The position numbers were made by a program, and so were the translations under genes. From a virus (taxonomy: Duplodnaviria > Heunggongvirae > Uroviricota > Caudoviricetes): 23,446 nt of DNA. The stretch lies in the IMG/VR virus record IMGVR_UViG_2698536392_000022, positions 1 to 23,446 of that record; one strand, written 5' to 3'. The notes under the pieces were generated by a model. That model had not been told where the DNA came from. It did not search any database and saw nothing but the letters and a program-made list of their open reading frames with translations. Shown in pieces: positions 20,861 through 22,664 of the stretch. Every line of letters starts with the position of its first letter. Within the stretch, counting starts at the first letter, position 1.

Positions 20861-22664
20861 CAATGTAAAATTACAGGTATTGCTCAGGGCTGTTGACCAG
20901 GCATCCCGCCCGTTTAAATCCATCCGCACAGCGAGCAAATCGCTGTCGGGGGATATCCGGGAAACACAAAAATCACTGCGCGAGCTGAACGGTCAGGCAT
21001 CCCGTATTGAGGGATTTCGCAAGACCAGTGCACAGCTCGCCGTGACTGGTCATGCACTTGAAAAGGCACGGCAGGAAGCCGAAGCCCTTGCCACACAGTT
21101 TAGAAACACCGAACGTCCGACCCGTGCTCAGGCGAAAGTGCTGGAATCCGCAAAGCGTGCGGCGGAGGACTTACAGGCGAAATATAACCGCCTGACAGAT
21201 TCCGTTAAACGCCAGCAGCGGGAACTGGCCGCTGTGGGAATTAATACCCGCAATCTTGCACATGATGAGCAGGGACTGAAAAACCGTATCAGTGAAACCA
21301 CCGCACAACTTAACCGTCAGCGCGACGCACTGGCGCGTGTCAGTGCACAACAGGAAAAACTTAACGCAGTCAAACAGCGTTATCAGGCCGGAAAGGAACT
21401 GGCCGGAAATATGGCCTCAGTGGGCGCTGCCGGTGTGGGGATTGCTGCTGCGGGAACGATGGCCGGTGTTAAGCTGCTGATGCCCGGTTATGAGTTTGCG
21501 TAGAAAAACTCAGAATTGCAGGCTGTGCTCGGTGTTGCAAAAGACTCCGCCGAAATGGCCGCGCTACGCAAACAGGCGCGCCAGCTCGGCGACAACACAG
21601 CCGCCTCGGCGGATGATGCTGCCGGTGCGCAGATTATCATTGCGAAAGCGGGTGGAGATGCTGCGGCTATTCAGGCGGCAACGCCGGTCACGCTGAATAT
21701 GGCACTGGCGAATCAGCGGTCGATGGAAGAAAACGCGCAACTGTTGCTGGGGACTAAGGCATCCTTTCAACTGTCAAATGATGATGTCAGCCATGTGGGC
21801 GACGTGTTGTCAGCAACGATGAATAAGTCGGCGGCTGATTTTCAGGGACTCAGTGATGCACTGACTTACCTCGGTCCGGTTGCGAGGACGGCAGGTGTAA
21901 GTCTTGAGCAGGCAGCGGCCATGACAGGTGTGCTGCATGACAATAACATCAGGGGGGCAATGGCGGGTACGGGTAGTAGTGCCGTTGTCACCCGATTACA
22001 GGCTCCGACAGGGAAAGCATGGGAAGCACTAAAAGAGCTTGGCGTTAAAACCTCGGACAAAAAGGGAAATATGCGTCCGTTGTTCACCATTCTGAAAGAG
22101 ATTCAGGTCAGCTTTGATAAACACAAGCTGGGAACGTCTCAGAAGGGGGAATACCTTAAAACCATTTTTGGTGAGGAAGCCCTGAAATCAGCGAACGTTT
22201 TACTGGCAGCGGCTGCAAGCGGAAAACTGGATAAGCTGACCGCCACGCTGAAAGCCTCGGACGGGAAGACCGCAGAGCTGGTAAATATCATGCAGGACAA
22301 CCTCGGCGGTGACTTTAAGGAGTTTCAGTCCGCTTATGAGGCGGTGGGGACAGACCTGTTTGACCAGCAGGAAGGCGCACTGCGTAAGCTCACGCAGACG
22401 GCCACAAAGTATGTGTTAAAACTCGACGGCTGGATCCAGAAAAACAAATCACTGGCGTCAACCATCGGCATCATTGCCGGTGGCGCGCTGGCGCTGACTG
22501 GCATCATCGGTGCAATTGGTCTTGTAGCCTGGCCGGTTATCACCGGCATCAATGCCATCATCGCGGCAGCAGGCGCAATGGGGGCAGTCTTCACGACGGT
22601 TGGCAGTGCTGTTATGACCGCCATCATTTTGCGATTGCTGACCGTGGAGCCTATACCGGCGTAA
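20853..22664 (+). pseudogene. T: Tail tape measure gene (P2 gpT-like), disrupted by an in-frame TAG at 21501..21503 and truncated at the 3' end
   Basis: Two ORFs of 216 and 382 codons in the same frame, separated by a single TAG (...PGYEFA * KNSELQAVLGV...). About 600 codons in total against about 815 for P2 gpT. Ends just after the hydrophobic segment. Confidence 0.75.

Follow-up and report, generated by a model that had tools for sequence, protein, structure and literature searches.

The stretch of DNA analysed here (IMG/VR record IMGVR_UViG_2698536392_000022, 23,446 nt; hereafter the window) comprised the half of a P2-like prophage that contains the late genes. Its genes were arranged in the order Q P O N M L X Y K lysA lysB lysC R S V W J I H G FI FII E/E' T ... 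ogr. With the exception of one base, the window was identical to positions 1442965-1466410 of the chromosome of Escherichia coli 2012C-4227 (NZ_CP013029.1). The sole mismatch was located at window position 34 (G against A), and the prophage of E. coli 2013C-4830 differed from the window by a 1-bp indel in H. The window was thus considered to be a third record from this lineage, closely similar to the other two. Strain 2012C-4227 is a clinical, Shiga-toxin-producing E. coli (STEC) of serotype O165:H25, whose closed genome was built exclusively from PacBio RSII reads, with an optical map as a check (PMC4683243). The prophage was located between pflA and pflB in strains 2012C-4227 and 90-3040 and adjoined ogrK and pflB in strains 2013C-4830 and 2013C-3492. 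All four strains belong to CC119 (PMC10132054). As in cryptic prophages, the element was integrated between host genes, and the same site was inherited vertically in related strains.

The features at the right end of the window were all encoded on the plus strand. The tail-assembly chaperone genes E and E+E' (20433..20860; PGAP CDS) were intact, with a TTTTTTG slippery site at 20681-20687 and both frames uninterrupted; the annotation of phage Wphi has a -1 frameshift for E/E'. The tape-measure chaperones therefore survive, though their client T is dead. The start of the tape-measure gene T was located within the end of E', and its position matched the operon FI-FII-E-E'-T-U-D, as judged from the gene order of the window and from Wphi. 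The T open reading frame started with ATG at 20853. Its 5' portion (20853..21503) consisted of 216 sense codons and an amber codon (TAG, T codon 217, 21501..21503). Codons 218-591 persisted as an untranslatable remnant with the tape-measure domain (21504..22625), the end of which coincided with a deletion junction (22616..22625). From the junction, the T frame entered D sequence in the wrong frame (ILRLLTVEPIPA, 22626..22664) and ended at TAA. A 3' fragment of D, which encodes the VgrG-like baseplate hub, covered approximately codons 212-387 (22616..23146) and was devoid of a start codon and N-terminus. The final gene before host pflB was the intact late-gene activator ogr (23228..23446; PGAP ogrK CDS).

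Homology to the P2-type gpT family was found on both flanks of the stop. The T stretch shared 96-97% nucleotide identity with T of P2-like phages over 1773 nt and, across T, 99.9% identity with the sister prophages of strains 90-3040 and 2013C-3492. The segment after TAG contained tape-measure domains (PF10145, E = 1.9e-44, spanning residues 22-223 of that segment; TIGR01760, E = 3e-97). The 216-aa fragment had no domain match over any Pfam threshold, and the predicted product, gpT(1-216), included no part of the conserved tape-measure domain. The uninterrupted open reading frame of approximately 815 codons that characterises gpT was absent, with a stop at codon 217 and the loss of codons 592-815. 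We conclude that T is a pseudogene of the gpT family and that TAG is a true interruption of a conserved gene rather than a stop that occurs by chance. PGAP already marks the gene as a pseudogene ('internal stop; incomplete; missing C-terminus').

Both sister prophages had CAG (Gln) at codon 217, as did phages P2 and Wphi. The neighbouring residues were the same in the window, P2, Wphi and both sisters, leaving Q217 as the sole local difference. Since CAG was shared by two sisters and two phages, it is taken as the ancestral codon and TAG as a nonsense change from Gln217 to amber by a C>T transition at 21501. The alignments indicate that the amber codon was derived within the window's lineage. 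A linked synonymous change was located 35 bp downstream of TAG (T codon 228, position 21536), where the window had GTT, the sisters GTC, and P2 and Wphi GTG; the two changes always co-occurred. A Dcm hotspot was considered as the origin of the transition and rejected. By eye, the mutated C is part of GCGCAGA, with no CCWGG site, and therefore does not represent a 5-methylcytosine deamination hotspot.

An earlier note on this DNA, made from its letters alone, had interpreted the TAG as a nonsense point mutation that would stop tape-measure synthesis after 216 residues. Both statements agreed with the alignments and with the position of TAG as codon 217 from ATG 20853, and the comparison with T of P2-like phages that the note had suggested gave CAG as the expected sense codon. 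The note had also described the frame as continuous around the TAG. The translation across the stop was as given (...PGYEFA, stop, KNSELQAVLGV...), with gpT homology on both sides. The downstream frame, in turn, did not extend to the natural end of the gene and terminated at TAA 22662-22664.

This premature end was due to a second lesion, 1.1 kb downstream of TAG. Collinearity between the window and the intact sister ended at position 22625, the T remnant reaching sister-locus position 7773, and resumed 1811 bp further on, within D. The deletion had taken T codons 592-815 (224 codons) and the whole of U, and D had lost approximately its first 211 codons. A 10-bp direct repeat, GACCGCCATC, occurred exactly twice in the 13.7-kb intact sister locus (locus positions 7764 and 9575), at the two breakpoints, and one copy remained at the junction in the window. 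The structure of the junction suggests that the deletion was made by slipped-strand or microhomology-mediated illegitimate recombination between the 10-bp repeats. Because 1811 is not divisible by 3, T was joined to D out of frame and reached an early TAA, 12 codons into D. The T frame comprised ~603 sense codons (216 before and 386 after TAG), compared with 815 for intact gpT. The remaining D fragment was 100% identical to the 3' end of the sister's D and is labelled 'incomplete; missing N-terminus' by PGAP. In P2, genes T, U and D are essential for the tail. Since all three were lost here, no tails are expected. Judging from the loss of these genes, the prophage would be incapable of producing infective particles.

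The distribution of the TAG allele was determined with a 41-nt megablast query, in which each 28-nt seed was forced to include the T of TAG. Among 5426 complete E. coli genomes, only 2012C-4227 and 2013C-4830 had the allele. The surrounding 83 bp were found in 1074 complete genomes, two of which had TAG, and neither of the linked changes (21501 and 21536) was found alone among these 1074 genomes. By exact protein look-up, the 216-aa product was recovered from 80 contigs, distributed over 95 blocks of public assemblies. Among them were Logan assemblies from separate runs and the 454/Sanger-finished JNE072951, so that several sequencing platforms were represented. All five loci that were fetched matched the window at every base between the T start and the ogr stop, and each contained both TAG and the deletion junction. 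Each examined TAG record also had the 1811-bp deletion. Intermediates with only the TAG or only the deletion were absent from the 5426 complete E. coli genomes, IMG/VR, the JGI metagenomes and the look-up contigs that were read.

The earlier note had raised a sequencing or assembly error as an alternative, in which case the true base at 21501 would be C. Residual consensus errors are a property of the technology behind the 2012C-4227 genome, which is based on PacBio RSII reads alone (PMC4683243). The same T was nevertheless present in the second, independently closed PacBio genome, in the window, in the Logan assemblies and in JNE072951, and this concordance of assemblies, together with the co-segregation of the linked change at 21536, argues strongly against an error. 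Moreover, residual PacBio errors are mostly homopolymer indels, not substitutions. We therefore regard an error at this position as extremely improbable.

The carriers of TAG belong to O165:H25 ST119 and include at least clades A and B, and the two closed genomes with intact T, U and D belong to O172:H25 ST660, clade H, which is also part of CC119 (PMC10132054). Within O165:H25, clades A and B at least are fixed for both lesions. Since the carriers are O165:H25 and the intact sisters O172:H25, the two lesions arose after the split from the O172:H25 lineage. The paper describing CC119 makes no mention of the lesions of this prophage (PMC10132054).

The second alternative of the earlier note was a phage propagated on an amber-suppressor host, i.e., a viable phage with a conditional-lethal amber mutation. 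We examined the tRNA-Gln operon by ubiF in 2012C-4227. Both glnV-type genes (glnV and glnX) had the wild-type anticodon CTG (CUG) and the other two had TTG. No supE-type suppressor was therefore present in 2012C-4227 at the supE locus, and the window contained no tRNA gene. A query with the supE allele had exact matches in 155 genomes; among the 60 matches listed, all were K-12 laboratory derivatives. CAG to TAG is a classical amber change, and supE would insert Gln, the exact wild-type residue, which counts in favour of a suppressor host. The sequence is nonetheless a chromosomal prophage remnant of wild clinical STEC isolates, and glnV and glnX provided no suppressor tRNA. The gene was also not otherwise intact, as the C-terminus of T, U and the N-terminal half of D were deleted. 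Because of this downstream deletion, amber suppression could not rescue T. A conditional mutant kept on a suppressor host is, consequently, hardly credible.

Programmed readthrough or recoding at TAG would be compatible with the in-frame continuation, the one feature in its favour. A stop codon that serves recoding would be expected to be conserved among homologues, and this TAG was limited to one clonal lineage (2/1074 genomes). P2, Wphi and the sisters have Gln at this position, and the downstream frame is itself cut short. We consider the probability of recoding negligible.

Very probably, TAG is a real, inherited C>T nonsense mutation and one among several lesions of a decaying P2-like prophage in STEC O165:H25 (ST119). 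Translation of T would halt at 216 residues, ahead of the conserved tape-measure domain. Separately, removal of the end of T, of U and of the start of D by the 1811-bp deletion would leave the element unable to build tails. The prophage, once immobilised, would decay neutrally by ordinary mutation, and a functional product would presumably not be made. Several independent inactivating lesions were indeed present, as is typical of cryptic prophages. In addition to Q217am and the 1811-bp deletion, the same prophage had been hit, beyond the window in 2012C-4227, by two insertions of IS2 and by a frameshift in cox. The IS2 copies of the window's lineage were located at 2012C-4227 locus positions 7461-8794 and 13473-14804, both outside the window, and one of them ended ~160 bp ahead of window position 1. 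In total, 24 late genes of the prophage are still annotated as intact.

Further differences were observed between the window and its relatives. In 90-3040, an IS2 was inserted in the 313-aa open reading frame that is the first of the window (window 868-872), where a 5-bp overlap suggests a target duplication. Gene H (13922-16240) contained internal direct repeats at 14437-14923, with an offset of ~131-132 bp and ~87% identity over 356 bp. Independent indels in H were found in the relatives, a 10-bp deletion (15967-15976) in 90-3040 and the 1-bp frameshift in 2013C-4830. At window position 7493, the head-completion gene L had an in-frame 3-bp deletion relative to 90-3040 (507 vs 510 nt). The host permease gene ycaM (90-3040 locus 37762-39192), located not far from the prophage, contained an internal stop in 90-3040 and was intact in 2012C-4227; it is an unrelated pseudogene of the sister strain.

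Outside the window, gpA of the prophage (2012C-4227 locus 10614-12956, 761 aa) aligned over its full length with Wphi gpA at 97% identity. Its stop codon was lost in 2012C-4227, the strain in which this was checked, and the frame read on for at least 20 codons. In the O165 lineage as well as the O172 lineage, gpA is labelled partial by PGAP, which makes a common ancestral origin of the anomaly probable. A common ancestral killing lesion in gpA was not accepted, as the match to Wphi gpA was full-length and inactivation was not clear.

The window and the 90-3040 prophage differed by 16 substitutions, 14 of which could be polarised with P2 and Wphi. Nine derived changes were assigned to the window's lineage, two silent and seven protein-altering (P S43N, P R14P, N A275V, M K46N, H E138D, FI L44F and T Q217 to stop). 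The 90-3040 lineage had five derived changes, all amino-acid-changing and none silent. With 14 substitutions the numbers are small, and the pattern is consistent with relaxed selection acting across the entire late region of the two lineages. Very recent clonal divergence also inflates the ratio of amino-acid-changing to silent substitutions, even under selection. On the plus strand, the derived changes of the window comprised five C>T (3027, 4048, 6085, 18784 and 21501), one G>A and three transversions; the C>T count rises to seven if the unpolarised positions 16892 and 21536 are added. This direction is in line with the known deamination bias. Strand-biased C>T mutation as an explanation was dismissed, since five (or seven) C>T against one G>A are too few for significance.

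The window also contained three AT-rich open reading frames at positions that are variable among P2-like phages. They were located beyond Q (1-942, minus strand), between S and V at the orf30 position (10627-11448, minus strand) and between G and FI (17053-18396, plus strand). Their GC content was 0.33-0.42, compared with 0.53-0.61 for the late-gene backbone. They had no match in Pfam, PADLOC or NCBIfam and were assigned only to the function-unknown PHROGs phrog_5937, phrog_2407 and phrog_15354. We regard them as candidate cargo or defence genes.

Such genes could give the lesions a selective value, if a grounded prophage keeps its cargo for the host or if gpT(1-216) has a role of its own. The allele is fixed in clades A and B of O165:H25 at minimum, which would agree with selection, as would the intact state of the three AT-rich open reading frames and of E, E' and ogr. 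Clonal fixation, however, requires no selection, and the sister disrupted one of the cargo open reading frames by IS2. Amino-acid-changing substitutions were scattered across head and tail genes, gpT(1-216) had no Pfam domain, and the early region already contained IS2 insertions and the cox frameshift. Selection of the lesions therefore appears unlikely, and neutral decay is the preferred explanation.

A role for the truncated protein in defence was also considered. The remnant retains ogr-dependent late operons in intact form, among them E, E' and the 216-codon portion of T. If gpT(1-216) were turned on by a superinfecting P2-like phage via these operons, it might poison the tail assembly of that phage. 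The truncated coiled-coil protein could bind the tail chaperones or the tube of the incoming phage. If true, the dead T gene would be a dominant-negative defence, a proposal that we regard as very improbable.

Under the preferred explanation of neutral decay, T is a pseudogene with two inactivating lesions, carried by a defective prophage. It is already flagged in public annotation and represents routine decay. For correct annotation, the P2-like element of STEC O165:H25 should be scored as defective. TAG and the deletion together constitute a clean lineage marker, present in O165:H25 (ST119), with the two closed O172:H25 (ST660) genomes intact. As a textbook case of prophage decay, the element also unites three kinds of lesion, namely a nonsense codon, a deletion between repeats and insertions of IS elements.

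Laboratory amber mutants of P2 gene T are classical conditional-lethal tail mutants. Like these, the window has a nonsense codon in the essential gene T, and tail assembly would be expected to fail. In contrast to the laboratory mutants, the mutation in the window is natural, fixed in a bacterial lineage without a suppressor host and rendered non-conditional by the deletion. Deletion between short direct repeats, by slipped mispairing or RecA-independent illegitimate recombination, is a textbook mechanism. The deletion in the window follows this pattern, with identical 10-bp repeats at a distance of 1811 bp in the ancestor-like sequence and a single copy kept, and the case showed nothing unusual compared with known short-repeat deletions.

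Cryptic E. coli prophages, such as PR-X of K-12 and the defective pools of EHEC, share with the window the occurrence of point mutations, IS elements and deletions as well as vertical inheritance. In the K-12 P2 remnant PR-X, an intact ogrK is located beside yegZ, a 219-bp pseudogene of the 3' part of D. In other genomes, a 3' fragment of D and ogrK are all that remains, as in PR-X. By analogy, the right end of the window appears to be moving towards a PR-X-like end state. Compared with PR-X, the prophage of the window is at an earlier stage, given its 24 late genes annotated as intact, and it is located between pflA and pflB instead of at the K-12 site.
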